NCBI GenBank assembly: GCA_045660065.1
Contig: JAZRDC010000030.1
Span: 35 to 64,034 of the forward strand
Reading direction: 5' to 3'
DNA: 64,000 nt
Source of the DNA: Clostridia bacterium
Lineage (GTDB): Bacteria; Bacillota; Clostridia; RGIG6154
Every line of letters begins with the position of its first letter. The first letter of the stretch is position 1. The notes below the pieces were generated by a model that had not been told where the DNA came from, searched no databases, and saw only the letters and a program-made list of their open reading frames with translations. Shown in pieces: positions 5,687-42,700 of the stretch. A program made the position numbers and the translations under genes.

Positions 5687-5698
5687 TTAAAATTCTCC

Positions 5699-9422: not shown

Positions 9423-9843
9423 AATCTGAAAGACCTGTTACAAGTTCATCAATGTTGATTTCATTTTCTGCATTGTATGTCTGCCAGTTTTCTGCGCTCC
9501 ATATTTCTATGTAAGATGACTGACCGATAATAACAGCGTCTTTTTCGATTTTTGCAAAATCCTTAAGGTTTGAAGCAATAAGAATTCTTCCCTGCTTGTC
9601 CACTTCACATTCGTTTGAGTTTGCAAATACGGCTCTTTTGAACTGTCTTGCAGAAGGGTCGCTGTCAGGGAGTGCTTCTATTCTTGCTTTGTACTTGTTC
9701 CATTCTTCAAAGGAATATGCACGAAGGCACTTATCCGCTCCGATGGTAACATAAAAATGAGAACCGATATCTTCTCTGAATTTTGCAGGCATAATAAGTC
9801 TGCCTTTTGCGTCTAAACCGTGTTTATATTCACCAATAAGCAT
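9412..9843 (-). CDS. mraZ: Transcriptional regulator MraZ
   Basis: MLIGEYKHGLDAKGRLIMPAKFRE... with duplicated DxxGR motifs. The ORF-track start at 9885 was trimmed to the Met that gives the canonical ~143-aa MraZ. Confidence 0.85.
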   Translation of the reverse strand: MLIGEYKHGLDAKGRLIMPAKFREDIGSHFYVTIGADKCLRAYSFEEWNKYKARIEALPDSDPSARQFKRAVFANSNECEVDKQGRILIASNLKDFAKIEKDAVIIGQSSYIEIWSAENWQTYNAENEINIDELVTGLSDYGL

Positions 9844-10169
9844 AATGCCCGCTCCTTTCGTAAAATATCGGAAAAAATCTACCACTTTTTAACATTTCGT
9901 GGCACTTTCCCCCACTTTTACTTATATAATAAACCATTTTGCAAAAAATATCAATAGTTTTTAAGAAAAAAATTAAAAAATTTTTAAAAAATTTCTTATT
10001 AATTATGGGGGATTTTTGCAATTATTATAAAACAATGGAAAATACTGCAAAAAAATGACATAAATTTTGTGAAAAAAGGCAAAAATTAAAACATAAAAAT
10101 TCTTGTTTTTTAATAAAATATATGATATGCTTATATCAAGGAATAGTATTTTCCTGTAAATTGTAAGGA

Positions 10170-12041: not shown

Positions 12042-12073
12042 AAACTTTTGAAAAAGTTTAAGGAGGAATATTT

Positions 12074-13246
12074 ATGCAAGGATTGCGAAAAAAATGCGTG
12101 GCTATGCTATTGGCGGGGGGACAAGGAAGCCGACTTGGGGTTTTAACAAAGCACACCGCAAAACCTGCAGTACCATTTGGGGGAAAGTACAGAATTATTG
12201 ACTTTCCATTGTCTAACTGTGTAAACTCAGGACTTGACACAGTTGGAATTATGACACAATATCAGCCGTTGGAACTTAACGATTACATCGGCAACGGAAG
12301 ACCTTGGGGATTAAATCGCAGTTTCGGTGGTGTTCACGTTCTGCCGCCTTATGCGAAAAGTAAAAAAAGTGAATGGTATAAGGGTACAGCCAATGCCATT
12401 TACCAGAACATTCATTTTGTAGACAGATATGACCCTGAATATGTTATTGTTTTATCAGGCGACCATATTTATAAAATGGATTACTCAAAGATGCTCGATT
12501 TCCACAAGGAAAAAGGTGCAGAATGTACTATTGCGGTTTTAGATGTTCCGCTTAAAGAAGCATCAAGATTCGGTATTATGAACTTAAACGAAGATGGTTC
12601 AATTTACGAATTTGAAGAAAAACCTAAAAAACCGAAAAGCACAATGGCATCTATGGGAATTTACATCTTCAATTGGAAACTTTTGAAAGAGTATCTTATT
12701 GAAGACGAAAAAAATCCTGATTCTGCAAACGATTTCGGTAAAAATATCATTCCGAAATTATTGGAAGACAACAAAAAGTTATACGCATATCTTTTTGAAG
12801 GATACTGGAAAGATGTTGGAACAATCGAAAGTCTGTGGGAAGCGAATATGGACCTTTTAGATCCTGAAATCCCTGTTGAACTTAAAGACCCGGACTTCAG
12901 AATTTATGCAAGAAACTATGCAAAACCTTCAAGTATTCTTGCACCTTCATCAGAGGCCACAAATTGCTTTATCGCAGAAGGTTGCATTATCAAGGGCAAG
13001 ACTGTAAATTCGGTTATTTCGGTAGGTTGCGAAATAGAAGAAGGTGCTGTTGTTGAAAACAGCGTTATTATGCCAAATACAATAGTTAAAAAAGGTGCAA
13101 AAATCAACTATTCAATCATTGGTGAAGATTGCATCATCGGCGAAAATGCAAAAGTCGGAACAGATGATAAAAACATCAGCGTAATCGGCCATAACAAAGA
13201 AGTACCAAATGGTATGGAAGTATCAGGTCAGGAGGTAAGTTTATGA
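12074..13246 (+). CDS. glgC: Glucose-1-phosphate adenylyltransferase GlgC (catalytic subunit)
   Basis: [13 protein letters not shown] nucleotidyltransferase motif plus a C-terminal left-handed beta-helix. Confidence 0.9.
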
Positions 13247-14361
13247 ACTCAATAGGTATTATTTTTTCAAATATTTACGACGCTCCAATGGGAGAACTTA
13301 CAAAAAGAAGAACTGTTGCGTCAATGCCATTCGGCGGAAGATACAGATTTGTTGACTTCGTGCTTTCAAATATGGCAAATTCAGGACTTACTTCAATCGG
13401 TATTATCACAAAATACAACTATCAGTCATTGATGGACCACTTGGGAAGCTGCAGCGAATGGGATTTAAGCAGAAAAAATTCAGGCGTGTATATTCTGCCT
13501 CCGTTTTCAACAGGTTCTACATCTGTTTACAGAGGTAATCTTGAGGCTTTGGAAAACGCACTTTCTTTCTTAAGAGCAAATAAAGCAAAGTATGTTATTA
13601 TGAGCGACACAACTGTTATATGCAACATTAACTATGAAGATGTTATTGACAGCCACAAAAAATCAGGGGCAGATGTAACTGTTATTGCGGCAAAACCAAA
13701 TGAAAATGAAACATTTACCGACAGCGACTTTTTTGTTAAAGAAAGCGATAACAAAGTTACAGACATTGCAATCGGAAAACTTATTGATAATTCCTGGCTT
13801 GTTGGTATGGGTATGTTTGTTATTGAACGCAAAAAACTCATAAGCACAATAGAAGACTATGTTGCCCGCGGAAGATTCAGTTTTGAAAAAGATTTCCTTC
13901 AGGGCAGATTTATTGACGGAGATTTAACTCTTAACGTTTACAAATTTGAAAAAACTATTTTAAGAAATCACAGTGTAAAATCATATTTTGACAATAATTT
14001 CAAACTTATGGATATAAAAGTTCATGATGAGATTTTCGCTAAAAATGCTCCGATTTATACAAAAGTACGCGACGAAGCGCCAACATACTATCACAAGAAT
14101 TCTTCTGTTAAAGGCTGCATTATCGCAGACGGTTGCACAATGATCGGAAATGCAGAAAACTCAATTTTCTTCCGTGATGTTCACTTAAAATCAGGTGCAA
14201 CTGTTAAGAATTCTATCATAATGCAGGGTTCAAAAATCGGGAAAAATGCAACTTTAGAATATGTTATAGTTGACAAAAACGTAAAAATAGAGGATAATGT
14301 ATCTTTAAAGGGTTCACCGGAAATTCCGCTTATTATTCCGAAAGGAACCACCGTATCATAA
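13243..14361 (+). CDS. glgD: Glucose-1-phosphate adenylyltransferase regulatory subunit GlgD
   Basis: Paralog of GlgC with a degenerate N-terminal motif ([12 protein letters not shown]), translationally coupled to glgC. This is the typical Firmicutes glgCD pair. Confidence 0.85.
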
Positions 14362-14385
14362 TTCAGGACTAAAAAGGAGTATTAA

Positions 14386-15837
14386 ATGAACATATTATAT
14401 GCGGCAAGTGAGGCTATGCCTTATGTGAAATCAGGGGGGCTGGGAGACGTTGCAGGCTCCCTTCCTGTTGAACTTACAAAAATTAAAGGCACAAAGGCGG
14501 CTGTAATTCTGCCATACTACGGGAAAATCAAAAACAACAAGGATTTAGATATTGAATATATTGGCTCATTTTCTGTTCCCCTTGCGTGGAGACAGGTTTA
14601 CGCCGGACTTTTCAAGGTAGTTCACAAAAATAAAGGCGTTGGTAAAAACAAACGCGAAGATTTAATTTATTATTTTATCGACAACGACTATTATTTTGCT
14701 GCCGACGGCTACGGCTATTATAACGACGGAGAACGTTTTGCGTTTTTCTCAAAAGCAGTTTTAGAAGCAATTCCGCTTCTTGATTTTGAGCCTGACATTA
14801 TTCACTGTAACGACTGGCAGACAGGCTTTGTTCCGCTTTTCTTAAAAGCTCATTATCAGGCGCAAGGTCTTTACGGAAATATTAAAACTGTACTTACAAT
14901 TCACAATATTGAGTATCAGGGAAAAGCAAATCCTGATTTCAGAGCAGAAGTTTTAGGCGTAGGCGAGGAATGGACAAATGTTATCACATTTGACAACTGT
15001 GTAAACGCATTAAAAACAGGAATTGTACTTGCAGACAAAATTACAACCGTATCTGAAACATACGCTCACGAGATTTGCCACGCATTTTTTGCTCACGGTT
15101 TAGAAAATATTTTAAGAGAAAATTCATACAAACTTACAGGTGTTGTAAACGGAATTGACGATAAACTTTACAATCCTAAAGAAGACGAAGTTATAAAAGA
15201 AAAGTTTTCTCCAACTAATTTCAAAGGTAAGGCGGCTTGTAAAAAGTATCTTCAGGAAAAATTGGGGCTGGAAGTAAATCCTGATATTCCTGTTGTTGCA
15301 ATGATTTCAAGACTTGTTTCACACAAAGGTCTTGACCTGGTTGAATATGTAGCCCACGACCTTATAAATCTTGGAGTTCAACTTGTGGTTTTGGGAACAG
15401 GGGATAAAAAATACGAGGATTTATTTAATTTCCTTGCTTATTCCTACCCTGACAAGGTATCGGCAAACATTACATTTTCAGCAAGTTTGGCAAAAGAAAT
15501 TTATGCAGGAGCAGACTTTTTCTTAATGCCGTCAAAAAGCGAACCTTGTGGTCTTTCTCAACTTATCGCAATGAGATATGCAACTGTTCCGATTGTTCGT
15601 GAAACAGGCGGTCTTGTTGACACAGTGCCTCCGATTAATCCTGAAACAATGGAAGGGGTTGGCTTTACATTCAAAGGCTATAACGCTCACGATATGTTAG
15701 GTGCAGTAAGCCGTGCGAAAGATTTTTATCACTTTGACAAAGACAAACTTAATGTGGTTATGAAGAAAATTTCATCACTTGATCTGGGATGGAAAACTTC
15801 TGCCGCAAAATATATGGATATATATTTGAAGCTTTAG
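14386..15837 (+). CDS. glgA: Glycogen synthase GlgA (ADP-glucose type)
   Basis: N-terminal KSGGLGDV motif and a GT-B fold, 483 aa. Confidence 0.9.
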   Translation: MNILYAASEAMPYVKSGGLGDVAGSLPVELTKIKGTKAAVILPYYGKIKNNKDLDIEYIGSFSVPLAWRQVYAGLFKVVHKNKGVGKNKREDLIYYFIDNDYYFAADGYGYYNDGERFAFFSKAVLEAIPLLDFEPDIIHCNDWQTGFVPLFLKAHYQAQGLYGNIKTVLTIHNIEYQGKANPDFRAEVLGVGEEWTNVITFDNCVNALKTGIVLADKITTVSETYAHEICHAFFAHGLENILRENSYKLTGVVNGIDDKLYNPKEDEVIKEKFSPTNFKGKAACKKYLQEKLGLEVNPDIPVVAMISRLVSHKGLDLVEYVAHDLINLGVQLVVLGTGDKKYEDLFNFLAYSYPDKVSANITFSASLAKEIYAGADFFLMPSKSEPCGLSQLIAMRYATVPIVRETGGLVDTVPPINPETMEGVGFTFKGYNAHDMLGAVSRAKDFYHFDKDKLNVVMKKISSLDLGWKTSAAKYMDIYLKL

Positions 15838-26732: not shown

Positions 26733-26804
26733 CAAATCAGACAGCCTCTGTGGTATGTGGGGCTGTCTTGCGATATATTCTTGTAAAAAATATAAAAAAA
26801 TACT

Positions 26805-26832
26805 TGATTTTAGAAAATAAGTATGCTATAAT
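26805..26832 (+). promoter_or_regulatory. Sigma-A-type promoter of the RiPP-like operon
   Basis: TTGATT, a 16-nt spacer, then TATAAT. It lies just downstream of the M23 gene terminator (26745-26772). Confidence 0.55.
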
Positions 26833-26835
26833 CAT

Positions 26836-26870
26836 TGTACATAGGTATAACTATGTACTTTTATGTACCA
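26836..26870 (+). promoter_or_regulatory. Palindromic operator overlapping the transcription start (TGTACATAG-N6-CTATGTAC plus a third TATGTAC half-site)
   Basis: Inverted repeat with an 8 of 9 match, located 4-38 nt downstream of the -10 box. Confidence 0.5.
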
Positions 26871-26891: not shown

Positions 26892-27155
26892 ATGCGTCTT
26901 AAAGATGGTTTTTTGTTAAGAAAAGTTGCAGGTGAATTTGTTGTAGTTCCCACAGGGGATGCTATGGTGAACTTCAAGGCAATGATTACGCTTAACGAAA
27001 CCGGTGCTTTTTTGTGGGAAGCACTCAAAGAAGAAAAGACAGAAGATGACCTTGTTTCAGCACTCCTTGGTGAGTACGATGTGGACGAGGCAACTGCTAA
27101 AGAAGATGTAGGCGGATTTGTTAATCTTTTAAAAGAAAAGAATTTACTGGTATGA
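26892..27155 (+). CDS. PqqD-family RiPP recognition element (RRE), stand-alone
   Basis: 87 aa: MRLKDGFLLRKVAGEFVVVPTGDAMVNFKAMITLNETGAFLWEALKEEKTEDDLVSALLGEYDVDEATAKEDVGGFVNLL, the PqqD/RRE winged-helix signature. The start was trimmed to the Met with a GAGGGTG RBS. Confidence 0.8.
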   Translation: MRLKDGFLLRKVAGEFVVVPTGDAMVNFKAMITLNETGAFLWEALKEEKTEDDLVSALLGEYDVDEATAKEDVGGFVNLLKEKNLLV

Positions 27156-27604
27156 AAAAAGTTTTAAGTACAAAAGACCTTATGCCGCTTATAAGCGATA
27201 TTTTAAAAACTGCTGAGCGTGTAAGGTTTACAGTGAAGGGAAACAGTATGTATCCTTTAATCCGCGGCGGCCATGATGAGGTTGAAGTGGTTAAGTGCGA
27301 TAGTATCGGCAAGTACGATATTGTGCTTTATAAAAGAGCAAACGGAGCATATGTTCTTCACAGAGTCTTAAAAAAGCAAGACGGTGCTTTGTCAATAGCA
27401 GGAGATTTTGAACAGGAACTTGAACATCCTGTGTATGAAAATCAGGTTATTGCCAAGGTTGATAATATAATAAGAGCAAGCGGCAGAATTATTCCCTGCA
27501 GCAACAAGGTGTATAAATTATACTGTGTTGTATGGTCAGTGGCTCTTAAAAACAGACACAAGATACTTAAGGTGCTTAAAAAATTGAGGCGGTGGTGGCT
27601 TTGA
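27152..27604 (+). CDS. ER/archaeal-type (S26B, SipW/Sec11-like) signal-peptidase-like serine peptidase
   Basis: Box B GNSMYP, box C YDIVLY, box D VLHRVL (His in place of the P-type Lys) and box E AGDF. It has no N-terminal TM. Its ATG overlaps the PqqD stop (ATGA). Confidence 0.65.
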   Translation: MKKVLSTKDLMPLISDILKTAERVRFTVKGNSMYPLIRGGHDEVEVVKCDSIGKYDIVLYKRANGAYVLHRVLKKQDGALSIAGDFEQELEHPVYENQVIAKVDNIIRASGRIIPCSNKVYKLYCVVWSVALKNRHKILKVLKKLRRWWL

Positions 27605-29262
27605 AAAAAACAGACGTCGCTAAAAATTGGTTTTTTAAAAATATCTTAGATTTTGGCGGAGGGGTTTTTGTTCTCACCGCAATATCAATTCTGATAAATG
27701 TATCAGGTGTCGGATTTGCAATAGCATCTCAAAGACTTTTGGATGTTGCATCAAAGTCAATGAGCGGCAACTTGTTCAAAGAAGCAGGAATACTGGTTTT
27801 CTTAGTCGTGCTTCAACTTGTTTTGCAAATTATCCTCTCAAAGTGCTATGTTAAAACAAACGCACAGGTGAGAATTAAAATAAAAACAGACCTTTTCCGT
27901 GATGTTGTAAGAAAAGACCTTACAGAGGTTAATTGTTACCACTCGGGCGAACTGGTCAACAGGCTCTCTGCCGATGTTAATACCGTGGCAGGAGCGGTGG
28001 TGGATATTCTTCCTACGGCGCTTTCGCTGTCAATAGGAGTGGCGCTTAGTTTTATAGTTTTGTTTAAACTTGACCCGGTGTATGCCATTATTTATTTAAT
28101 AGTAGCACCTTTAGCACTCCTTACAGCAAGAATATTCAGAAGAAAACTTAAAGATCTGCATAAAGAGTCTGCTCAGTCAGACGGTAAAGTAAAAGCATTT
28201 ATGCAGGAATGTTTAAGAAATCTGTTGGTTGTGAAGGCTTTTCAGAAAGAAGAGCATATGACCGACAAGTGCAATGCTTATCAACTTGTTAACTACAAGG
28301 TTTTGATAAAGAAAAACAATGTAAGTATTTTGGCTAATGTAATGTTCTTTTTGTCCATTACTGCAGGATATTACTTAACATTGGTCTGGGGAGCGTATAA
28401 GCTTTCCATCGGACTTATGACTTTTGGTGAGATTGTGGCAATGCTTGAACTTGTTTCACAAATTCAATCGCCGCTTAAGTCATTGTCATCACTGTTTCCA
28501 CAGTATTATTCAGCACTGGCATCATCTGAAAGAATTTTAGAACTTGAAAGTTTGCCTGATGAATTAAAACTCAATCAAGGCGGGGCAAATGGATTTTCAA
28601 AACTTGTTATGGAAAATGTATCATTTGCTTATGATGATAAAAAAGTGTTTGAAAATGTATCCTGTGAAATAGAAAAAGGCGACATCATCGGAATTTGCGG
28701 TGAGTCGGGAATTGGAAAAAGCACTCTTATTAAACTCGTTTTAGGTGTGCTTACGCCGGATAGCGGCGAAATTTACATAAAAGACCAAAGTGGTCTTAAA
28801 GTATCGGTTGATACAGAAACGAGAAACATATTTTCATATGTGCCACAGGGCAACCTGATATTGTCCGGCACTATCGCAGAGAATGTGGTTTTCGGATCTG
28901 ACAACATAGATTTACAACTGGTTGAAAAAGTAATTCAGGTGTCGCAGCTTGATGAACTTATCAGTCAGTTACCGGCAAAACTTGATACTGTTTTGGGTGA
29001 AGGAGGCCTTGGGCTTTCGGAAGGACAGGTACAGCGATTATCTATCGCAAGGGCATTGTATCGGAATTCAGAAGTTCTGTTGCTTGATGAAGCAACATCG
29101 GCGCTTGACCGCGAAACTGAAATCAGGGTGTTGAAGGAAATCAGAGAAATGGGCAAAACATGTTTGTTCATTACTCACCGTTTGGAAGCACTTTCTAGTT
29201 GCAGCAAGCTACTAAGTGTAAAAGACGGGAAAGTTTCAATCGACAGGCAGGAAATTTTATAA
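27592..29262 (+). CDS. Fused ABC exporter (TMD-NBD) of the peptide/bacteriocin-export type
   Basis: Six TM helices, Walker A GESGIGKST, signature LSEGQVQRL and Walker B LLLDEATS. The start overlaps the upstream peptidase gene. Confidence 0.85.
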   Translation: MVALKKTDVAKNWFFKNILDFGGGVFVLTAISILINVSGVGFAIASQRLLDVASKSMSGNLFKEAGILVFLVVLQLVLQIILSKCYVKTNAQVRIKIKTDLFRDVVRKDLTEVNCYHSGELVNRLSADVNTVAGAVVDILPTALSLSIGVALSFIVLFKLDPVYAIIYLIVAPLALLTARIFRRKLKDLHKESAQSDGKVKAFMQECLRNLLVVKAFQKEEHMTDKCNAYQLVNYKVLIKKNNVSILANVMFFLSITAGYYLTLVWGAYKLSIGLMTFGEIVAMLELVSQIQSPLKSLSSLFPQYYSALASSERILELESLPDELKLNQGGANGFSKLVMENVSFAYDDKKVFENVSCEIEKGDIIGICGESGIGKSTLIKLVLGVLTPDSGEIYIKDQSGLKVSVDTETRNIFSYVPQGNLILSGTIAENVVFGSDNIDLQLVEKVIQVSQLDELISQLPAKLDTVLGEGGLGLSEGQVQRLSIARALYRNSEVLLLDEATSALDRETEIRVLKEIREMGKTCLFITHRLEALSSCSKLLSVKDGKVSIDRQEIL

Positions 29263-29284
29263 AGTTTGTTTGGGAGGAATAAAG

Positions 29285-30217
29285 ATGAAATGTAAGAGAA
29301 TTTTCAAAGTAGCGAGCGCGCTCGCATTGACTGTAGCTTTGTTAGTATCTTCAGCTGTTGTTTCATTTGCTGCAACTTATACAACAACAACTACTTATAT
29401 TGATCAGAATACTATCGAAGTTACATCAACTGCTGTTGGTCTCAACAAAGGCGATATGGCTACTTATGTTGCTTACAATAACGACGGCTTTACAGAAGGT
29501 AACGCAGTTTACATCGACCAGGCAACAGCAGACGAAACCGGAGAAGTTGAATTTAAATATCAGACAGATCTTGATGATTTAAAAGCAACTGTTAAATTCG
29601 GTGGTTCAACAGAAAGTGCAGCTCAGGATGCTATACTTGGCGGTTACAATGTTAACATTAAAGTTGACGGCGTAGATGCAGGTACAGTTAAAGTTGCAGA
29701 AGTAGCTGCAGAATACGAAGGTGATCTCGCAAGAGAAATCCCTGTTGAACTTGATGCAAGTAAAGTAGTTGATAAAGTTACAGTAAATGGCGCAGAAGTA
29801 GCTTGGTATGTTAAAGACAAAGCTGTAGTTATTTACTCTAATGCTATCAAGGCTGATGGTGCAACTGTTGAAATTGAAACAGCAGCTGCAAAAGCAGTTA
29901 CACTTGTTCTCGGTGCTGTTAAGTCAGAAGCTGCTAATACAGTTACTGCATTTGCTAAAGCAACATGCGGTGCGTATGCAAACTATGGTATCTTAATCGG
30001 TGGTAATGCTACTCTCACAGAAGAAGTAGTTAGCTGGGACGCAGCAGAAGATTATTCTAAAGCTGTTAAATTACCTGCACTTGGTATGAGCAAAGACGGT
30101 ATGTTCTGTGTTGAAGTTACAGACGAAGCTCTTGTAGCAGGTACAGAATACAAAGTTGCAGCTTATGCAGGCGAAGAAGTTACAGATGCAAAAGCAGTAA
30201 CAGTAAAAGTACAGTAA
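29285..30217 (+). CDS. Secreted Ala/Val/Thr-rich protein of unknown function (Sec signal peptide)
   Basis: MKCKRIFKVASALALTVALLVSSAVVSFA|ATYTTTTTY..., with a GGGAGGA RBS. No recognisable domain. Confidence 0.6.
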   Translation: MKCKRIFKVASALALTVALLVSSAVVSFAATYTTTTTYIDQNTIEVTSTAVGLNKGDMATYVAYNNDGFTEGNAVYIDQATADETGEVEFKYQTDLDDLKATVKFGGSTESAAQDAILGGYNVNIKVDGVDAGTVKVAEVAAEYEGDLAREIPVELDASKVVDKVTVNGAEVAWYVKDKAVVIYSNAIKADGATVEIETAAAKAVTLVLGAVKSEAANTVTAFAKATCGAYANYGILIGGNATLTEEVVSWDAAEDYSKAVKLPALGMSKDGMFCVEVTDEALVAGTEYKVAAYAGEEVTDAKAVTVKVQ

Positions 30218-30263
30218 TTAAGCGACTGTATCAATAACGATACAAATTCAGGAGGTAAATTCT

Positions 30264-30428
30264 ATGAAAAATTATCAGAAACCTGTTTTAGAGGTTGTTG
30301 AATTAGCAGTTGCTGAAAATATCGCTGCATTAGTACCTAAGACTATCTATAAAAGATCAGCAGGTGCTAAACTCGCTCAGCAGGGCGTAAAAATGTACGA
30401 CATGAAAGCTGACGAAATTATAAGCTAA
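30264..30428 (+). CDS. 54-aa precursor-like peptide with a lasso-type leader motif and a C-terminal Ser. It is not in the ORF track because it is under 60 aa.
   Basis: Strong RBS AGGAGGT 8 nt upstream. Translation: MKNYQKPVLEVVELAVAENIAALVPKTIYKRSAGAKLAQQGVKMYDMKADEIIS. The N-terminus matches the Firmicutes lasso-leader motif MK.Y.KP.LEV that is bound by PqqD RREs. The C-terminal part is cationic and amphipathic. Confidence 0.6.
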   Translation: MKNYQKPVLEVVELAVAENIAALVPKTIYKRSAGAKLAQQGVKMYDMKADEIIS

Positions 30429-30470: not shown

Positions 30471-31361
30471 ATGTTCACTTTTATTATGCAATATACTGTC
30501 GCAGGTTTAAATATTGATATTATCAGTGAGCATCCTTCTTACATTTTTATGAGAATGAAAGACTATGAAAGCACTTTTTCGGGGGAAGCAGACTTTACAG
30601 TCAGGTGTAAAGAAAACAAAAATATCTCGCTCCCCGAGGATTTTGTGCAGATTGGTGAAAGAGTCGGCAGATGGCTCTGGATTAAAAAGAAGGATGGCAC
30701 ACTTGGTGCTTATATTAAATACTCAGACCTTGAGCAAATCGCAGCTTATGTAAGTTGGGACAAGGATTTTAAAAACATTGAACTTGAGGTTTTGGATTTA
30801 GAACCTTTCGGTGGAATGGCAATAGAACAAAGAATGTTTTATTTGCTCGGTGATGTTTTTACTTACACAGTTTTAAGCCGCGGCGCAGGAGTTTTTCATT
30901 CCTCTGCTATCAGTTATAAGAGCAGCGGAATTTTGTTGTCTGCACCGTCGGGTACGGGTAAATCAACCCACGCAGAACTCTGGAAGACGGTTTATGGGGA
31001 AGATGTTATTCATTTTAACGACGATACCCCCGTACTTAAAGTAGAAAATAATACAGTTTATGCCTACGGTACTCCGTGGAGCGGAAAAACTGCTATAAAT
31101 AAAAATATAAAAGTGCCCCTTAAGGCGATTATAAGCCTTGACAGGGCACAGGAAAACTCGGTAAAAAGACTTATGGGATTAGACGCTTTTTACAGAGTGT
31201 TCAACGAATTCAGGAAGCCCCCTGAGGGTGGACTTTTAGATAATTGTTTAGCACTTATTGAAAATGTTTTGGATAAAGTTCCTGTTTATGAACTTTTGTG
31301 CAACAAAGACCAGAGTGCAGCAATTACACTTCACAAAGCATTAGGCTTTGACAAAAATTAA
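30471..31361 (+). CDS. HPr kinase/phosphorylase C-terminal-domain-like Ser kinase (RiPP tailoring kinase)
   Basis: P-loop LLSAPSGTGKST at ~aa 160, 296 aa. This family occurs as the precursor C-terminal Ser kinase in Firmicutes lasso clusters. The exact start is uncertain (30471 or 30486). Confidence 0.65.
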   Translation: MFTFIMQYTVAGLNIDIISEHPSYIFMRMKDYESTFSGEADFTVRCKENKNISLPEDFVQIGERVGRWLWIKKKDGTLGAYIKYSDLEQIAAYVSWDKDFKNIELEVLDLEPFGGMAIEQRMFYLLGDVFTYTVLSRGAGVFHSSAISYKSSGILLSAPSGTGKSTHAELWKTVYGEDVIHFNDDTPVLKVENNTVYAYGTPWSGKTAINKNIKVPLKAIISLDRAQENSVKRLMGLDAFYRVFNEFRKPPEGGLLDNCLALIENVLDKVPVYELLCNKDQSAAITLHKALGFDKN

Positions 31362-31378
31362 TATTAAGGGTGAAATAT

Positions 31379-32989
31379 ATGAAAAAGAAACTGTTTTTTG
31401 GTGCGGTTATCACAACCGTTCTTTGCACAAGTCTGACTTTTTCAGCATTTGCTGCTAAATTTTCAGACCTGTCAGACAGCCATTGGGCTTACAAAAATAT
31501 TATGGAATTAAACTCACAGGGCGTAATTAACGGCTACTCTGACGGAACATTTCGTCCTGAGGCTCAGGTTACAAGAGCGGAGTTTGTAAAATTAATTGGA
31601 ACAACCAACGAAAAAAAATCAGAGGATTTCGCAGATCTTCCAAAAACTCACTGGGCATATGAATATGTTATGAACTCAGGGGTTGATATGGAAAGAAGAA
31701 ATTTCCGTCCTGATGAAAATATTACAAGAGCAGAAGTTTTAGACATTCTCTGGAATAGATACGGAACTGAAACAGATGCTGTTGTTCCCGGAATTATTGC
31801 AAATCAGCACGAAGAAATAAATGCCATCGCCTGGGGCTATTCATACGGTCTTATGATTGGTGATGACGGCATAAATTTAAGATTATCTGACGATTTGTCA
31901 AGAGCAGAAGCAGTAACACTTATCCTTCGTTCAAGAAAAATCGACACAACTAATCAGAAACTTTTAGCAGATAATGTAGCAGACAATCTTTTGAAAGATT
32001 TGTTCAATTCAACAGGGATTTTTGACTCTCAGTACAACGAAAACGCTACAATGACTATCGGTGAAATTTCAAGAGCGGCACTTAGAATTGCTCACGGAAC
32101 ACATTCGATTCTTTACAACAAAGATATGTATGTGGAAACTCCAAATTACGAAGATGAATATGCAAACGATGTTGCATATATGGCAAAGCAGATTTTCGGT
32201 GAAAGCAACAATAATAAAGAATATGCAACAAAAGCGGCAAATCAGCAGGAAGTAATCTCTGCTCTTATGTACGGCTATATGTTCAAAGCGAACGAATCTC
32301 CTGTTATCGGCAGAGTTGACGATTACTACAAAGATGCAACAGTTGACAAAAAGGAACTTATGAAAAATATGCTCCTTACTTATACAAAACGCAGAGGTGT
32401 GTTCTCAAGCGCCGATGGACTTTTACATAATGACAAACCTGTAACACACAAAGAAATTGCATCAATTCTTTTGCAACTTGACAATCTTACAGGCTCACAG
32501 ATGAGTTACTCAGGCGGCAAAGAGCAGGATGAAAAATTATCATTAAATGCGGCTTTATACCAAAAAGCAGATGGGGATTTCAAAACACTGCTTAAAGGAA
32601 TGCCTGAAGTAGTTTACACAACACCGATTGAAGGCTCTGCAACTGAATTTTTAACATTCTCAAAGGACTTTTTTGAAATATTTGCAACTCTTTCTGACGG
32701 TATTGTGAACAAAGCCAAAGTAAAGGGCGCAGAAATTGCAATCAGAGTTTATCCTACACTTGTATCAAATGCGGGAAACGAAGTAATTATGAGATCAAAG
32801 GTTTACATTGTTTCAAATCCGAACGGATTGGGACTTGGCGAAATCATTGGCAAGTGCGATATGGCAAATGATGTTACCGCCCGTGAAAACGGAACATACA
32901 TTGTTGATATCTCAACCAACGGACCGCTTGATGATATGTATATAAACCCTGCAAACGCAAGTTTAAGACGCGTTATCTGGAACGACTAA
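31379..32989 (+). CDS. SLH-domain (S-layer homology) cell-surface protein
   Basis: Signal peptide, then triplicated SLH motifs (FSDLSDSHWAYKNIMEL..., FADLPKTHWAYEYVM...). Confidence 0.8.
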   Translation: MKKKLFFGAVITTVLCTSLTFSAFAAKFSDLSDSHWAYKNIMELNSQGVINGYSDGTFRPEAQVTRAEFVKLIGTTNEKKSEDFADLPKTHWAYEYVMNSGVDMERRNFRPDENITRAEVLDILWNRYGTETDAVVPGIIANQHEEINAIAWGYSYGLMIGDDGINLRLSDDLSRAEAVTLILRSRKIDTTNQKLLADNVADNLLKDLFNSTGIFDSQYNENATMTIGEISRAALRIAHGTHSILYNKDMYVETPNYEDEYANDVAYMAKQIFGESNNNKEYATKAANQQEVISALMYGYMFKANESPVIGRVDDYYKDATVDKKELMKNMLLTYTKRRGVFSSADGLLHNDKPVTHKEIASILLQLDNLTGSQMSYSGGKEQDEKLSLNAALYQKADGDFKTLLKGMPEVVYTTPIEGSATEFLTFSKDFFEIFATLSDGIVNKAKVKGAEIAIRVYPTLVSNAGNEVIMRSKVYIVSNPNGLGLGEIIGKCDMANDVTARENGTYIVDISTNGPLDDMYINPANASLRRVIWND

Positions 32990-33024: not shown

Positions 33025-33717
33025 ATGGAAGAAAGAGAAATTGATATATTTGAACTTATACAAGCGGTCTTTAAAAGATGGTGGCTGGTGCTTGTAATTA
33101 CAATAGTAATGGGTAGCGTAGGTTTTGGGTATTCAAAATTTGCAATAACTCCTCTTTACTCTGCAAAGGGTACACTTTATATCACTATCGATAACACAGC
33201 AGCGGCTCAGGGCGGAACAAGTCTTGACTACAACTCGATTCTTGCAGCGCAGGAACTTACAAACACATATTCACTTATCTTGTCAAGTAACACATTTTAT
33301 AAAATAGTTGCTGCCGAAAGCGGACTTGACTATTCATACAAAGATATTTCTAAAATGGTTACAATGGGTAACGAAAACGAAAGTGAAATTATGAGCATTG
33401 TTGCAAGTTGTCCAAACAGAGAACATGCGGCAATAATCGTTGAAACAATCTTAAACAACGCACAGGCAGAAATTTCCCGCGTTGTTGTTGGCGGAAGCGT
33501 AAGGATTATCGATCATCCTGAACTTCCAAACGGTCATTCTTATCCAAATGTTACTAAAAACACATTCCTTATGTTGATTTTAGGATTTATTTTAGGATGT
33601 GCTTTAGCAATTTTCATTGAATGGCTTGACGATACAATCAAAGACGGTGATGATGTCATGAAATTTGATATTCCTGTATTAGCGGAAATTCCACTTTTAG
33701 AAGTTAAAAGTGAATAA
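33025..33717 (+). CDS. Wzz/CpsC/YwqC-like polysaccharide co-polymerase (chain-length determinant). Orphan: no BY-kinase partner is nearby.
   Basis: N- and C-terminal TM helices with a periplasmic Wzz-like segment, and N-terminus FELIQAVFKRWWLVLVITIVMG. Confidence 0.7.
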   Translation: MEEREIDIFELIQAVFKRWWLVLVITIVMGSVGFGYSKFAITPLYSAKGTLYITIDNTAAAQGGTSLDYNSILAAQELTNTYSLILSSNTFYKIVAAESGLDYSYKDISKMVTMGNENESEIMSIVASCPNREHAAIIVETILNNAQAEISRVVVGGSVRIIDHPELPNGHSYPNVTKNTFLMLILGFILGCALAIFIEWLDDTIKDGDDVMKFDIPVLAEIPLLEVKSE

Positions 33718-33737: not shown

Positions 33738-36700
33738 ATGAGGAAGTGTATTAGAGCGCTTATCAGCCTGGTGCTGGCGTTGGTGATGATTACGCCGGTT
33801 GCCTTGCCTGTTGCGGCGGACAGTTCTTATGGGTTTATTGATTTCCCAACGGGCTGGTCTGCTCCGGCAATGGCTCATGCCGTTGCAAACGGAATAATTT
33901 ACGGAAAAACTGAAAATACTATCGCTCCGGGAGACAATCTTACAAGAGCGGAAATGGGCACGATTATCAATCGTGCTTTTGGTGCTACTATAGGAAAGGA
34001 TATTTCAGCCTTTTCTGATGTGTCAGCATCTGCGTGGTATTACGAAGAAATCAAAAAATCTTATAATATGCAGACTATGTACGGTGATGAGGGCGGAACT
34101 ATGCGTCCTGATGCGCCGATCATAAGAGAAGAAGCCATAGCTATCGTTGCAAGAGCTATGGTTTTAAGTGGTTATTCAGCATCTGAACTTAATAAGTTCA
34201 ATGACAAGGCTGAAGTTGCAGGTTGGGCTGTTGATCCTGTTGCATCAATGGTAGCAAACGGTTATGTAAACGGCGATGACAAGTCAAACCTTAACCCTAA
34301 GGCATATATCACAAGAGAAGAATTTGCACAGCTTATTTACAACATCATTAAGCATTACTATAACAAAGACGCTAAAAGCGAAAGTTATCAGGGTAATTTA
34401 ATGCTCAACAAACCTGATATTTCTCTTGAAAATATCACAGTTAACGGCGACCTTATTTTAGGCGACGGCGTTGGTACAAGCAAAATTACACTTACAAATA
34501 TCGATATCAAAGGCAGACTTTTAGTAAGAGGTGCTGCTCAGATAACACTCAAAAATGTTACAACTGCAAAAGGCGTTGTTGTGAAAAATGTTAACGGAAC
34601 AGTTCATTTTGACAACTATCGTGATGAAAAAGTTTTCGACGGAGTAGTTGAACATACAACCGTAACCTATAAACAGCGCGCTACCGGCGGTGGCGGCGGT
34701 GGAGGTGGTGGAGGTGGAACACCTCCTGCTCCTACAACCGCAGGTTACAAGGTTGAACACTATCAGGAAGCATTAGACGGCAGTTTTGTGATTTTTGAAA
34801 CTGATGTTCTTTCAGGTACAGTAAATTCAAGCGTTACTGCTGTTGCTAAAGCATACGAAGGCTTTGCAGAAGATGCAACCAATGCATCAAGAGTACCAAC
34901 AGGTATTGTTGCGACAGACGGCACACTTGTACTCAAACTTTACTACACAAGAAACAGTTATAATATCGTGTATAACTTGGGCGAAGCAGGCACAGATGTT
35001 GTGTTGAGCCTTAAATACGGTGCAAATGTAAGCCTTGAAGCACCAACAGTTACAGCCCCTGCTGGTAAATACTTTGCAGGTTGGTTTGACGCGCCCGTTG
35101 GCGGAAATCAGATTATATCATTAACAGTTCCTGCAAACGGAACAACAATTTATGCGCAGTGGTCAACAACTCCACCTGCAGTTGTGAATTTTACCGTTGA
35201 ACACTACAAAGAAAATGTTGACGGTACGTATTCTTCACCTGCAGAGACTGAAACACTGTCAGCAACTGTGGCAACTGTTGTAAAAGCGCAGGATTATGAT
35301 AAAACATACACAGATTTTGATGTAGATCTGACAGCAAGTGTGGACGTTGCAGTAGCAGCAGACGGAAGCACAGTTCTTAAAATTTACTATACAAGAAAAA
35401 GTTATAACATCGTATATAACTTTGGTGAAGCAGGTGGAAGCACTACAGTAAGCCTTAAATTTGAGGCTGATGTTGACCTTTCAACTCCTGCGGTTACAGC
35501 CCCTGCAGGCAAATACTTTGCAGGTTGGTTTGATGCACCTGTTGGCGGAAATCTTATTACAACATTAACAGTGCCATCAGGCGGAACAACAATTTACGCG
35601 CAGTGGTCAACAACTCCAACTACTATTGTAAACTTCACAGTTAAGCACCATCAGCAGAACATTTTGGATGATTTGTACCCTGCAAATCCATTTGAAACAG
35701 AGACAAAATCCATTGCGGCAGGCAGTACTGTAAAAGCACAGGATTATGCAAAGACTTACACAGGATTTACTGCTGATTTAGCAAACAGCCCTGATGTAAC
35801 AGTTGCAGCAGATGGAAGCACAGTTCTTAACATTTACTATGTGAGAAATACTTATACTATCACATACAACTACGGTGAAGCAGGCGGAGAAGGTTCTGTA
35901 ACACTTAAATACGGTGCGGCAGTAGATCTTTCAGCGCCACCGGTTGTTGCACCTTCAGGCAAAACCTTTGCAGGTTGGTTTGACGCGCCTGTTGGCGGAA
36001 ACCAGATTACAGATTTAACTGTTCCTGAAAACGGAAAAACAATATACGCACAGTGGTCAGATATTTCACCTGTAAACTTTACTGTAAGACACTTCCAGCA
36101 GAATATTGAAGACGATTTGTATCCTTCAATAGCATTTGAAGAAGAAACAAAATCTGCAATTCCGGGTTTTGTTGCAAAGGCTCAGGATTATGCTAAGGCA
36201 TACACAGACTTTACTGCTGTTTTAGCAAACAGCCCTGATGTAACAGTTGAGGCAAATGGAAGCACAATCCTTAATATTTACTATACAAGAAATACTTATA
36301 CTATCACATACAACTATGGTGAAGCAGGCGGAGAAGGTTCAGTAACACTTAAATTCGGCGCAGATGTAGACCTTTCAGCACCGGCAGTTACTGCACCTGC
36401 AGGCAAATACTTTGCAGGTTGGTTTGACGCACCTGTTGGCGGAACACAGATTGGCTCATTGACAATGCCATCAGGCGGTGCAACAATCTATGCACAGTGG
36501 TCAGATATCCCACCTGTAAACTTTACTGTAAGACACTTCCAGCAGAATATTGAAGATGATTTGTATCCTTCAATAGCATTTGAAGAAGAAACAAAATCTG
36601 CAATTCCGGGCGCTACTGTATCAGCAGCTAGGTTTGATAAATCTTACGCAGGATTTACTGCAGATTTAATAAACAGTCCTGATGTAACAGTTGAGGCAAA

Positions 36701-39700
36701 TGGAAGCACAATCCTTAACATTTACTACACAAGAAACACTTATACTATCACATACAACTATGGTGAAGCAGGCGGTGAAGGTTCAGTAACACTTAAATAC
36801 GGTGCGGCAGTAGACCTTTCAGCACCGGCAGTTACTGCACCTGCAGACAAAACATTTGCAGGCTGGTTTGATGCACCTGTTGGTGGCAATCAGGTTTCAT
36901 CTTTGACAGTTCCTGTAAACGGAAAAACAATATACGCACAGTGGTCAGACATTCCACCTGTAAACTTTACTGTAAGACACTTCCAGCAGAATATCGAAGA
37001 CGATTTGTACCCTTCAGTAGCATTTGAAGAAGAAACAAAATCTGCAATTCCAGGTCATACAGTAAGAGCGATTGACTTTGCTAAAACATATGAAGGCTTT
37101 GCTACTGATTTAGCAAACAGTCCTGATGTAACAGTTGAGGCAAACGGAAATACAGTTCTTAACATTTATTATGTAAGAAACACTTATACTATCACATATA
37201 ACTATGGTGAAGCAGGCGGAGAAGGTTCTGTAACACTTAAATACGGTGCGGCAATAGATCTTTCAGCACCGACAGTTACTGCACCTGCAGGCAAATACTT
37301 TGCAGGTTGGTATGATGCACCTGTTGGTGGAAATCAGGTTTCATCTTTGACAGTTCCTGTAAACGGCACAACAATTTATGCACAGTGGTCAGATAATCCT
37401 ACATATATGGTTTACCACTATAAAGCAGATTTAGACGGAAATTATCCTGACAACTTGCTTGTTATTTCTACAATACCTGCAGAGTATGGTGCACAAATTA
37501 CAGCAACTCCTGGCAATTTTGAAGGGTTCCATGAAAACACAACACATCCTGACAGAGTAACAAGCGGTATAAACGATGGTACACTTGTACTTAAACTTTT
37601 CTACGACAGAAACACATATACTGTTTCATTTGACGCAGGTCAGGGAACTGCTGTTTCAGATGTAGAGTACAAATACGAACAGCCATTTGGCAGTGTTGTA
37701 TCAACAAGAGAGTACTACATTTTAGATGGTTGGTACAAAGACTTGAATGACCCTGCATCAAAGGTAGAAGACTACCATAAAGCAGGTAGAGAATTTACAG
37801 GCGGTACTTTGTACGCTAAATGGGAAATCGACAGAGCTGCAATCGGCGATGTTGTATTTACTGCAAGTGTTACAGATGAAGACCTTGATAACGACGAATT
37901 CTCAATTTTGGTTGATTTATCAAACAACTTAATTGGTATTTCTGAGTACGGACTTACTCTTAACTGGGATAACACCCAGGTTAAACCGATTTTGGTTGGC
38001 GGTAAAGTTGTTACTGACTTAAATGGTCTTGGCGGAAATGCTATTACAACATCAGCAGATTCTGTTACAACAGAAGATGGTGCGGCTGCGCTCAGTTCTG
38101 TTACAGTAAACTGGAACAGTGTTGCACCTGTAGCAGGAAATGCAAATCTTTTCAAAGTAAGATTTAAAATTACAAATACTTTGGCAGATAAAGACCACGA
38201 AACTCCATCTTTGAATATGTTCAGAATGATGAGAGCGGCGAATATTGATGGTCTTATGGACTTACCATTTACAATTACAAGCGTATCTGTTTCAATTATC
38301 TCTGAAACAGGGGAAGTAATTCCTCTTGATAATTCAACTAAAGATACAGGCCTTGCACCTTACAAAATTGAACATTACAAAGAAAACACAGAAGATACTG
38401 CATATTCTTTGGCATATACAGAGTATGGCCACGATATTGTAGGCAAAGTTGTGTTTATCAGTGAAGGTAAGGCTGAATATATAGCAGAAGGATTTATATA
38501 CGAAGAAGGAAAGTCAGCAAACAAGATAGTTATTACAGAATCAGGTGCTGTAATTAAACTTTATTACGCAAGACCTCGTTTTGATGTAGAATTTGACTAT
38601 CAGGGGGCTACAAGAGTTGAAGGTCCTGCATCTGTAAGCCTTAAACTTGGTGCAACAATTAAAAATCATTTTCCTGAAGAAAATTCATTTGCAAAAGATG
38701 ACTATAACTTCGGCGGTTGGTTCACCCAGCCTGAAGGTAAAGGTCAGAACGCAGGAGATGGACTCGTTGTTCCTAAAGGCGGTATAAAACTTTATGCTAA
38801 CTGGGTTCAGACACCATATAAAGTTGAACACTATCAGATGGCATTAGATGGCGTTAACGCTAAACTTGTTGCAACTGATACAGGTTACGCAAAAGCAGGA
38901 ACAACAGTTACTGCAACTGCAAAAACTTATTTAGGTTTTGATGCTCCATCTGTAATGCCAAGTGAAAAAGTTGCAGCAGACGGTTCAACAGTTATCAAAG
39001 TTTACTACACAAGAAAAACATACACCATCAACTATAACTTTGACGGTGGTACAGCAGTAGGTGCTTATGAAACAACATTCAAGTATGGTCAGTCTATTCC
39101 TTTGGCAAAAGCCGAAAAAGAAGAAGACGATGTAGAATATCAGTTGATAGGATGGCGTGCAAATTCTGAAACCGGTCCTGTTGTAACCAATACTTCAAAT
39201 ATTGACCATATTTTAAGAACACTTACAGATGATGTTTTGAATCTTTACGCATGGTGGGTTCCGGTTACAGCAAGTACTTCAAAATATGTTGTAGAACACT
39301 ATAAAGAAGAATTGGACGGAACTTATCCTGAAGCGGCAACAGAAACAACTGAAGTGCAGTCAATTCAGATTCCTGCTACACTTAAAGTTTCTGAACTTAA
39401 AAAACCATACGAAGGATTTACAGTAGACGAAGCAAAGAGCAAAGATTTACCAATCACAGAAGAAGGATTCTTTACTCTTAAGATTTATTACACAAGAAAT
39501 GAATATACATTGAATTACGATTATTGCGATGCAGATGTATCAGGTGTTGCAAGTAACAAATTCAAGTATGGTCAGACAATTACACTTCCTGAAGAAGGAA
39601 CATACAGCAAGGAAGGATTTATCCCGACAGGTTGGTATAAGACAGATGTTTACATACCATCAAGCCTTGTTGACGAATCAACAAAGATTGAAGAAATTGT

Positions 39701-42700
39701 TAACATTTCTACATCAGATGAGGCAACAATTTATGTTAAATGGGATCAGTTCTTTACTGTAATATTTAATGAACGTGGTAATTTAAGACATACAAGTAAG
39801 GTATATCCAAAAGTTTCAGATACAGTTCCGCAGGCAGATATCGATTATGCTTACGGCGAACTTATTAACCCTTATGTTTTAGGATATCGTAAGGATGCGT
39901 CAGTTTCATCTATTTACGCAGAAAATCCGTATGAACACAAACTCTACGGTAACTGGTATTATTACGAAGATGGTAAGTATATCTTATTTACCGATGAAAC
40001 TGTTGTTAATAAAGATTTGACAGTAAGATATATGTTCAGAAAAGCAGGTCTGGAACTTAATATCGAAAAAATCAGTCAAATAATCGAGCCTATATTTGAA
40101 GTAACCTTTGAAGAAGACACAAGAATTCTTGACACATTAAAGGATGCTGCATTCTTGTTTGAAGAAAAACTTCTTGCGGCATATGGTGCGCTTGATGCAG
40201 GTGAAAAATTCAACAAGGTTAATGATAAACTTGTAGATTTGCTTACAGACAAGGGAATTGCCGTTGTTCCTGGCAGAATTTTTGCAGATGACGGTGAAAT
40301 CCTGAAACAGCATGTTGCATTCAACGCATTTTCATATCTTGAAGAAGAACAACTCAAGAAATCACTTGTTGAAGTTGTTAAAAAGACTTTGAAGGACGAT
40401 CCTTCAAAACTCATCGATATTATCGACGGAATGCTTAAAGAAAAAGACGAAAATGTTATCCAGATGATGGATGATATGCTTGTTTCAATGCTTTCAGGTT
40501 CTGATTCACAGAGAATTAAGGATATTATTGCTGAATCTGTTGAAAAAGCTGTTGCAAACGATACAACAGGCGAATTTAAAGAACAGATTAAAGGTATAAT
40601 TATCGCACAACTTGATGCAGGTAACACAACTGTTGAATCAAGTGTTAAAGATGCCGTAACCGATTACTTTATGAATAAGGGTAACGACGAAGCAATCAGA
40701 AAAATCGTTGGCGACCTTATTAATCAGGCATTTGCAACACAAGATGAAAACGATCCTATCAGAAAATTCATCAAAACTTATATTACTGACTACTTAAATA
40801 CAGAAGCAGGAAGCAAAGTTTTAGATGATATGATCAGAGATTTGGGCGAAAACCTCGATCCTGACAGTGATGAAGCAAAACCTGTTATCAAACTTATCCA
40901 CGATGTATTGGCAGGAAATATTCAATATCTTGAAGAAATTGTTGACGGTGTGATTGCAGACCTTAATCATCTTGAAGGTACAGAAATTTACAATGTTATT
41001 ACTGAAGCAATCACCGAAGAACTTATGAGCAACGAAGAAGAACTTAAGATGATGGTTGAAGCAATCGGTGATGTTGATGTTACTGACTTCTTAACAGAAT
41101 TTATGGCAGACGATTATGCATTTAAAACTATCGTTGAAACAGTAGTTGCAGAACAGACAGTATTTGAAAGCATAATCAGCACATCACTTAATAATGATGA
41201 AGTGTTTGAAACACTTATCACTCAACTCAGCGGTGATGCAACCTTCTTTAATATGATGGTTGATGTTGCAATTTCAAACAATGCACTTATCAACAGTGTT
41301 AAAGGAACTATCATCAATGATGATGAAGCCCTTGTTAAAGTTATCAAGAGTGCTGCACAAAACGATCAGATCAAGCAGGAAATTATTGATAAACTCTTGT
41401 CTGATACAACAAGCGGTGGCACAATTGAAGAAATTCTTAAAGGCGGTATCGCAGGTACATCATATTATGATGAAGCATTGGCTACTGCAAAAACCAAAGT
41501 TGCCGGTATGATTAAAAACATTCTCGCAGGCGGTATTGACGAAAACAGCGAATACTGGACATATGTAGAAACAAAAGTTCAGGAACAGATTGATGCAGAA
41601 GTTGCAAAAATCAAGGCTGATCTTGCAGATGGTATTGACGAAACCAGCGAATACTGGCCATATGTAGAACAGACAGTTAAAGAACAGGTAGAAGCAAAGA
41701 AAGCAGAAATCAAAGCTGACCTTGCAAACGGTATTGACGAATTCAGCATCTACTGGCCATATGTAGAACAGACAGTTGAAGACCAGATTGCTGCAAAAGA
41801 AGCAGAAATCAAGGCTGAACTTGCAAACGGTATTGACGAAAACAGCCAGTATTGGAATTACATTTATCCGAATGTAAAAGAAAAAGCAGATGCTGAAATC
41901 GAAAATGTACTTACAGCAGGTATCGATGAAACTGATACATACTGGAATGCAGTATATCAGGCGGTTTTGGAACAGGCACAGGATTATATCACTGCAGGTA
42001 TAATTGATGAAAATGATGTTAAAACTGCTCTTAACAACGGACTTAGTTCAGATCCTATGTTTGCAGATATGAGTGCTGAAATCATTGTTTCTGCAAAAGA
42101 AAAAGCAGATGAAGAAATCAAAGGAGTACTTCAGAACCCTATTGATGAAAACAGTGAATACTGGACATATGTAGAAACAAAGGTTCAGGAACAGATTGAC
42201 GAAAAAGAAGCAGAAATCAAAGGTGTTCTTGCTAATGGTATTGATGAAACCAATACAGAATACTGGCCGCTTATCGAACCAAAAATCAACGAAAAGGTTG
42301 AAGAAGTAAAAGCGGATATTAAAGCCGATCTTGCAAATGGTATCGAAGAAGGCAGCGATTACTGGAACGAAATTTATCCAAAAGCCGTAGAAGAAGCAGA
42401 AAAAGAAGTTGAAAAAGTTCTTACATATGGTATGGCAAAAGATCATCCATACTGGAATCAGATTTATGATGCCGTTAAGGAATATATTGAAGATTCTGTT
42501 GTAACTGACTTTGATTCACAACTTGATAATGCTATGGCAGACCCTGTGCTTAAAGAAAAGATTAAGCAGTGGGCATCAGATGAAATTGCTGACGAAACTT
42601 CATCAATCAGAGGCTTCCTTGCAAATTACATCAAAGGTCTTGGTGCTGCAAATGCAACCAAGGAAGAAAAAGCACTTAAAGACACAATTATTGCATCTGT

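Follow-up and report, generated by a model that had tools for sequence, protein, structure and literature searches.

Organization of the locus

The DNA analysed here, a 64,000-nucleotide stretch from a Clostridia bacterium (contig JAZRDC010000030.1; hereafter the window), carries a gene (27152..27604) whose 150-aa product, devoid of a membrane anchor, resembles S26B-like leader peptidases of the SipW/Sec11 type, in particular LppS, an enzyme of the peptide clusters discussed below. It is preceded by a gene (26892..27155) for an 87-aa stand-alone RiPP recognition element (RRE; RiPP, ribosomally synthesised and post-translationally modified peptide) of the PqqD-like, lasso-B1 type (Pfam PF05402, PqqD, E 4.5e-20). 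Genes for an exporter, a secreted protein, a candidate precursor peptide and an HprK/PEPCK-fold P-loop protein follow on the same, forward strand. An earlier annotation based on the letters of the window (the sequence-only reading) had singled out a stand-alone RRE beside a candidate leader peptidase, and a RiPP-like cluster, with a precursor whose leader carries a YxxPxL motif, was indeed found around this pair.

The peptidase

The motifs in which boxes B to E of the signal peptidases had been recognised are all present as named. Direct reading of the sequence places GNSMYP at residues 30-35 (codon of Ser32, 27245-27247) and YDIVLY at residues 55-60; VLHRVL occupies residues 68-73 (His70, 27359-27361) and AGDF residues 83-86 (Asp85, 27404-27406), and the codon of Glu91 lies at 27422-27424. 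Eight residues (Gly30, Ser32, Met33, Pro35, His70, Arg71, Gly84 and Asp85) are invariant in all 12 aligned relatives, which reach down to 32 % identity, and again in a second alignment of 47 diverse relatives, where Glu91 is conserved in at least 90 % of the sequences. The family is large: at E<1e-10 an exhaustive profile search yielded 5176 cluster representatives, with lengths of 140-170 aa in nearly every case. Judged from these alignments, the conservation of the motifs is far beyond chance. At the base position His is found without exception, just as in Sec11 and SipW, so that the expectation of a His instead of a Lys in box D is borne out.

The best curated match to the protein is the archaeal-type signal peptidase I model (TIGR02228, E 2.7e-7, at a score below the cutoff of the model); the bacterial-type model gave E 0.042. 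When the profile of the family was compared with solved structures, human SEC11C (E 0.007) and SEC11A (E 0.033) were the best matches, and their catalytic boxes (Ser, His-Arg and Gly-Asp) align with those of the family. The peptidase thus has the Ser nucleophile of box B, the His base of box D and the Gly-Asp of box E with a downstream acidic residue, all in common with the archaeal/ER-type signal peptidases (S26B: SipW, Sec11, SEC11A/C). It is because of the His base, the TIGR02228 and SEC11 matches and the profile comparison with LppS given below that we assign it to S26B rather than to S24.

The absence of an N-terminal anchor, likewise proposed in the sequence-only reading, holds as well. 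The highest 19-residue Kyte-Doolittle mean, which falls in the C-terminal helices, is 0.97; the threshold for calling a transmembrane segment is ~1.6, and none is predicted. In the family, a mean of 1.6 is reached by only 6 of 162 members. An AlphaFold2 model (pLDDT 82) shows an N-terminal helix (residues 7-20), amphipathic in the model, followed by a beta core and, at residues 119-149, by two C-terminal helices. Unlike the S26B signal peptidases, the window enzyme is therefore anchor-less, and its presumed substrate is an RRE-bound cytoplasmic leader and not a Sec signal peptide. The description as an anchor-less S26B-like peptidase is correct, and the enzyme most likely derives from the archaeal/ER-type signal peptidases.

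The RRE and its coupling to the peptidase

The lasso PqqD chaperone models match the window RRE weakly. Its relatives in the PDB are TbiB1, PbaB1 (9x90), TfuB1 and LppB (9x8z), and its Asn35 and Asp72 align with Asn33 and Asp70 of LppB, the residues by which the Pro kink and the Tyr of the leader, respectively, are held in place (PMC13381572). It is also 51 % identical to a Dehalobacter RRE (WP_015045167) assigned to cluster 4 of the sequence similarity network (SSN) in the published dataset.

The TGA stop codon of the RRE gene overlaps the ATG of the peptidase gene (gtATGAaa), confirming the overlap reported earlier, and close coupling recurs in the 52 related loci that have a PqqD gene directly 5' of the peptidase gene. 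The two genes overlap by 4 nt or 1 nt in 14 of these loci, and in almost all of the others a start codon in the peptidase frame is found between ~11 nt before and 8 nt after the PqqD stop.

The candidate precursor peptide

A small open reading frame (ORF) at 30264..30428, preceded by a strong ribosome-binding site (AGGAGG, 30250-30255), encodes the 54-aa candidate precursor, composed of a conserved leader, MKNYQKPVLEVVELAVAENIA, and a variable core that ends in Ser. Its N-terminus, MKNYQKPVLEVVEL, contains a Y-x-x-P-x-L motif in the form YQKPVL; this is the motif bound by lasso-type RREs. A PDB sequence search with the 54-aa peptide gave no meaningful match. Homologous small peptide ORFs are present in 44 of the 85 sources surveyed (see below), and their alignment, anchored on the Tyr, gives the leader consensus MKxYxKPxhEhVELxxEExhA, or MKxYxKPxhExhELxxEExhA in a looser form, for positions -3 to +17, beyond which, from +18 onward, the information content collapses. 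The pattern is that of a conserved leader joined to a variable core, as read from the aligned sequences. In the window peptide, spacing from the Tyr as in the LppA-type leaders would put the cut after Asn19 (AEN|IAA), and the conservation boundary would put it after Ala21 (NIA|A).

The core of the window precursor contains no Cys. Of 45 distinct peptides, 18 have Ser as their final residue (P ~1e-8 for a background of 8.5 %), and 32 of the 45 have a Ser among the last six residues.

The exporter and the ScmC-like protein

The exporter gene (27592..29262; permease plus ATPase; ABC_membrane 1.2e-33, ABC_tran 4.1e-28) finds MsbA as its best NCBIfam model, and its start codon, GTG at 27592 or TTG at 27601, overlaps the TGA of the peptidase gene (27602-27604). 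No Peptidase_C39 domain was found by a Pfam scan of this exporter, and removal of the leader by a C39 transporter was rejected on that ground.

The P-loop protein (30471..31361, 296 aa), a putative peptide kinase, belongs to the ScmC family (NCBIfam ScmC, E 2.7e-6; HprK_rel_B, E 0.003), and its close homologues all carry PF27840 (ScmC). The P-loop SxPSGTGKST (S160-T166) is invariant among these proteins. PDB sequence searches returned matches at the level of the P-loop only. The AlphaFold2 model (pLDDT 94.6) has PEP carboxykinases and HPr kinase/phosphatase (1knx) as its nearest solved folds, in keeping with a peptide kinase of the HprK-like type.

Conservation of the gene set

A genome scan with the 12-sequence peptidase alignment, limited to one genome per species, produced 80 loci, all from Clostridia or other Bacillota and mostly from metagenome-assembled genomes of gut and rumen. 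An ORF and hidden Markov model (HMM) census was then taken over 85 sources (the 80 scan loci, four metagenomic loci and the window). The peptidase is accompanied by PqqD in 78 sources, by an ABC exporter gene 3' of it in 67, by an ScmC-like protein in 55, by a YxxP peptide in 44 and by Wzz within 9 kb in 42; the 315-aa secreted protein occurs in 23, an S-layer homology (SLH) protein in 22 and an NTP_transf_5 protein in 19. The genes are arranged in at least three orders: PqqD - S26 - ABC - secreted protein - peptide - ScmC - SLH - Wzz, which is that of the window; PqqD - radical SAM - peptide - ScmC - S26 - ABC - NTP5; and NTP5 - ScmC - PqqD - S26 - ABC. The occurrence of several gene orders argues for a functional link beyond mere synteny.

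The same conclusion is supported by gene fusions. In one protein of 542 aa (P0091) the S26-like domain is fused to NTP_transf_5, and in Paludibacter and Porphyromonadaceae (Bacteroidales) it is fused to an ABC transporter (Supplementary Data 1, PMC13381572).

A radical-SAM/SPASM gene lies between the PqqD and peptide genes in 21 related loci, e.g. in Anaerocolumna xylanovorans DSM 12503 (L021:5856-6989). All 28 peptides from radical-SAM loci have Cys in the core (mean 3.2), against 1 of 20 from loci without this gene, the window included. To judge from these sequences, two types of product seem to depend on one and the same chassis, made up of leader, RRE, peptidase, ScmC-like protein and exporter.

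Six loci (L035, L045, L066, L067, L075 and L080) show a further arrangement, with a divergent SLH gene 5' of PqqD-S26-ABC and with neither an ScmC-like gene nor a YxxP peptide detected within the fetched flanks. The system may here be reduced to a minimum or split up.

Two proteins encoded near the window precursor are conserved partners of the peptide gene in clusters of this type. The 315-aa secreted protein (29270..30217), directly 5' of the precursor gene, has a Sec signal peptide (...SFA/ATY) and matched no Pfam or NCBIfam family; its homologues lie 5' of the peptide gene in 23 sources, in nearly all cases as the immediate neighbour, and without exception they carry a signal peptide at the N-terminus. 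The 539-aa cell-surface protein encoded at 31370..32989 has SLH domains (Pfam SLH, E 2.5e-24), beyond which no known family was recognised, and homologues of a constant 534-556 aa adjoin the cluster in 22 sources.

Comparison with the LPP clusters

Clusters for "linear polyphosphorylated peptides" (LPP) have been described in Bacilli (Popov et al., Nat Commun 2026;17:6633; PMC13381572). They comprise the precursor LppA, the HprK-like kinase LppK, the RRE LppB, the MsbA-like exporter LppD, the NTP transferase LppN and LppS, a signal peptidase I of archaeal type homologous to SipW. In Paenibacillus alginolyticus DSM 5050 deletion of lppS abolishes leader removal, in vitro cleavage of LppA by LppS needs LppB, and the S29A, H68A and D93A mutants of LppS are inactive (PMC13381572). 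An AlphaFold3 model combined with mutagenesis places the sheet formed by RRE and leader on the LppS N-terminal helix; the residue polyphosphorylated by LppK is Ser3 of the core, and cleavage is poor when the precursor lacks phosphate (PMC13381572).

We compared the window family with LppS-related sequences taken from Supplementary Data 1 of that study, in whose SSN edges were drawn at E<=1e-23. An hhalign comparison of 47 members of the window family with 10 sequences of the LppS cluster gave a probability of 99.6 % and E 2.5e-24 over 136 columns, i.e. homology over nearly the full length, with GxSMxP, HR and GD...(D/E) all aligned and with Ser29, His68 and Asp93 of LppS opposite Ser32, His70 and Glu91 of the window peptidase. 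The window enzyme stands outside SSN cluster 1 (pairwise E 1e-9 and 3e-8 to two of its members). It is 38-41 % identical to members of cluster 4 (Dehalobacter, and Anaerocolumna, i.e. locus L021; E 9e-34 and 2e-32) and 34 % identical to cluster 9 (Ruminococcus).

The resemblance extends to most of the other parts. A peptidase of ~150 aa, in which a beta core is flanked by an N-terminal helix and by C-terminal helices and which has a Ser/His/acidic triad, is encoded beside a discrete RRE that has both the Tyr-binding Asp (Asp72) and the Pro-kink Asn (Asn35); the leader has Y-x-x-P and a Glu at +14 from the Tyr. An MsbA-like exporter (ABC_membrane plus ABC_tran) is present, and so, as suggested by modelled fold, P-loop and membership of the ScmC family, is a putative HprK-like kinase; both kinds of cluster lie beside polysaccharide or cell-envelope genes.

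Several features set the window cluster apart. Its host belongs to the Clostridia, in contrast to the Bacilli, and it has conserved secreted and SLH partner genes. An HMM built from P0091 and its relatives gave no NTP transferase hit anywhere in the window, and there is none among the Pfam-scanned ORFs either (the scan ran from 15856 onward, with the ORFs at 774-15837 outside it); 19 related loci do have one. The LPP leader consensus is YxxPxVLxHQxIxFETxxS (PMC13381572), and the window leader retains of it only YxxPx[LVI] and the Glu at +14, within its own consensus given above. Finally, a C-terminal Ser is enriched among the homologous peptides and is probably the modified residue, in place of the core Ser3 of the LPP.

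These comparisons bear directly on the central proposal of the sequence-only reading, namely that the leader is handed by an RRE to a protease of the S26 type. The proposal is supported by the behaviour of the full-length homologue LppS, which cleaves LppA only with LppB (PMC13381572). The accompanying claim that such a pairing lies outside the established RiPP protease repertoire has been out of date since May 2026 (PMC13381572). The pairing is thus already known experimentally, and the window holds a further, Clostridial locus with variant features.

Proposed function and alternative explanations

In our view, RRE-dependent removal of the leader from the 54-aa peptide is the likely function of the window peptidase. 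The enzyme is most likely cytoplasmic and of the LppS type, acting through Ser32 and His70 together with a third, acidic residue, Glu91 (or Asp85). By analogy with LppB and the lasso B1 proteins, the PqqD-like RRE would bind the YQKPVL motif of the precursor, with Asn35 and Asp72 making the contacts. The resulting RRE-leader sheet may dock onto the N-terminal helix of the peptidase, as modelled for LppS, thereby placing the conserved end of the leader (...VAEN-IA-A...) in the active site. The ScmC-like protein probably phosphorylates the peptide, and the enrichment of Ser at the end of the aligned sequences makes the C-terminal Ser the best candidate for the site at which the window precursor is probably modified; if the LPP precedent applies, cleavage could be coupled to this phosphorylation. 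Export of the released core would be by the adjacent ABC exporter, in which there is no protease domain.

A number of observations weigh against this interpretation. The window peptidase is only 26 % identical to LppS (pairwise E 3e-9) and has Glu as the third residue of the triad, where LppS has Asp. The likeness of the RRE to LppB is weak (33 % over 45 aa), TbiB1 and PbaB1 being slightly closer. TIGR02228 scored 30.6 bits, short of its cutoff of 51.85, and all curated S26 models remained below theirs; the top Foldseek matches of the peptidase are LexA and lambda cI domains, in a fold common to S24 and S26 and thus not diagnostic. The ABC gene is absent from some relatives (e.g. L001); one relative of 43 % identity has the complete gene set save for it. 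The nearest relatives, those of SSN cluster 4, are listed with "RRE others" and with precursors not determined, as are those of cluster 9, where "RRE others" are co-localised (PMC13381572). Moreover, the window precursor has neither the FET|xxS motif nor a Ser at +18 (core position 3), and therefore neither the cleavage site nor the phosphosite of the LPP can be transferred to it.

The protein could instead be a dedicated SipW-like signal peptidase for the secreted proteins encoded in the same region, i.e. the 315-aa protein, the 539-aa SLH protein and a 3661-aa SLH protein further downstream. SipW of Bacillus subtilis, encoded in the tapA-sipW-tasA operon, processes TasA and TapA; the LPP study likewise refers to this case (PMC13381572). 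Besides this precedent, the catalytic motifs of the S26B type and the conserved neighbours with Sec signal peptides and AxA-like sites would suit such a role. However, the enzyme has neither a transmembrane anchor nor a signal sequence, and the outer side of the membrane is therefore out of reach for its active site. The secreted partners occur in just 22-23 of the 85 sources, compared with 78 for PqqD, the peptidase gene is translationally coupled to that of the RRE, and LppS needs an RRE to act on its leader peptide. We regard this explanation as improbable. Less probable still is a non-catalytic or self-cleaving protein of the S24/S26 fold, comparable to the chaperone SipA or to the regulatory autoproteases LexA and UmuD. 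The Pfam match of the single peptidase sequence, which is to Peptidase_S24 alone (E 0.06), points in this direction, as does the presence of S. pyogenes SipA beside the C-terminal domains of lambda cI and LexA among the top Foldseek matches; neither single-sequence Pfam nor Foldseek can tell S24 from S26. The sequence-only reading had itself raised membership of an unrelated S24 (LexA-like) family with no conserved dyad as the counter-case. What we found is a Ser and a His that do not vary within a family of thousands, a constancy that speaks for catalysis; the base is a His where LexA and UmuD have Lys, so that there is no Ser-Lys dyad. The 150 aa hold a catalytic core and helices, with no DNA-binding or other extra domain and no N-terminal extension that could provide a cleavage site, and LppS is catalytically active. 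This explanation is very improbable.

It is also conceivable that the peptidase degrades the spent leader, or trims the core, after another protease has acted, and that the RRE mainly serves a different enzyme. The 21 related loci in which PqqD stands beside the radical-SAM/SPASM gene and not beside the peptidase gene speak for this, since the RRE may there primarily serve the radical-SAM enzyme. Nevertheless, no radical-SAM gene was matched in the window, where the overlap of the RRE and peptidase genes is kept; no other protease of its cluster was seen among the Pfam-scanned ORFs, the exporter has no C39 domain, and the activity known for LppS is leader removal. Such a secondary role is, in our opinion, hardly probable, and RRE-dependent leader removal remains the explanation that we favour.

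Relationship to other peptide systems

The kinase of paeninodin-type lasso systems phosphorylates the C-terminal Ser of the peptide. These split-B systems have in common with the window cluster a stand-alone B1-like RRE, a YxxPxL leader, translational coupling of RRE and protease, an HprK-like kinase, an ABC exporter and a frequent C-terminal Ser; their protease (B2) is a cysteine enzyme and, in contrast to the serine enzyme described here, of an unrelated fold. Their HprK-like kinases have been cited as close relatives of the LPP kinases (PMC13381572). A lasso cluster was nevertheless rejected as the identity of the locus, as neither a B2 transglutaminase-fold protease nor an Asn-synthetase-like cyclase was present among the Pfam-scanned ORFs.

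With the SynChlorMet (SCM) and GeoRSP cassettes the window shares an ScmC-family P-loop protein and a PqqD-like RRE (ScmD being PqqD-like). The 21 sister loci add to the set of peptidase, RRE, ScmC-like protein and ABC exporter a radical-SAM/SPASM enzyme and Cys-rich cores, whereas the window has no radical-SAM match and a core without Cys; all matches of curated SCM models in the window were far below their cutoffs.

Taken jointly, these relationships allow a broader reading, which we put forward tentatively. The window may belong to a distinct Clostridial branch of LppS/RRE systems, whose common chassis would serve radical-SAM/SPASM-modified, Cys-rich peptides in the sister loci and Cys-free peptides, independent of radical SAM, at the present locus; the latter would be co-inherited with the secreted protein, the SLH protein and Wzz, and probably be modified at the C-terminal Ser rather than at core Ser3. 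If true, this would point to a role related to the cell envelope or the S-layer rather than to an antibiotic.

Homologues of the signal peptidase-derived, RRE-dependent leader peptidase described in Bacilli are widespread in the Clostridia of gut and rumen as well. The same set of peptidase, RRE and leader joins differing tailoring functions: HprK-like alone or together with radical SAM/SPASM, with or without an NTP transferase. The published mechanism thus gains in reach, with no new principle added. In practice, a PqqD gene adjoining a gene for an anchor-less S26-like protein, combined with an MKxYxKP leader, provides a handle for genome mining that would find uncharacterised peptide products beside cell-envelope genes in uncultured anaerobes.

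Additional features of the region

A promoter-like site on the forward strand (TTGATT-17-TATAAT with a TG extension, 26804..26832) lies 60 nt 5' of the RRE start codon. With 10/12 it shares the top score of the region, and no other site there has the TG extension; it is a consensus match only, and the number of such sites in the region is not above that expected from shuffled sequence. Between this site and the RRE start is a perfect 8-bp hairpin, GTACATAG...CTATGTAC, followed by TTTTATG (26837-26858), which could be a regulatory element of the 5' untranslated region or a chance match.

On the far side of the cluster, an ORF of 186 aa without a Pfam family (49458-50018) is situated between the secDF genes and dxs. 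Closer to the SLH gene, on the forward strand, are a gene for a Wzz-type polysaccharide chain-length determinant (33025..33717; Pfam Wzz, E 1.5e-13) and, 3' of it, that of the giant SLH protein of 3661 aa (33738-44723). The latter protein contains a run of 11 Gly and approximately six tandem repeats of ~190 aa ("...YNYGEAGGEGSVTLKYGA...FAGWFDAPVGGNQ..."), and its C-terminal half is long, acidic and helical.

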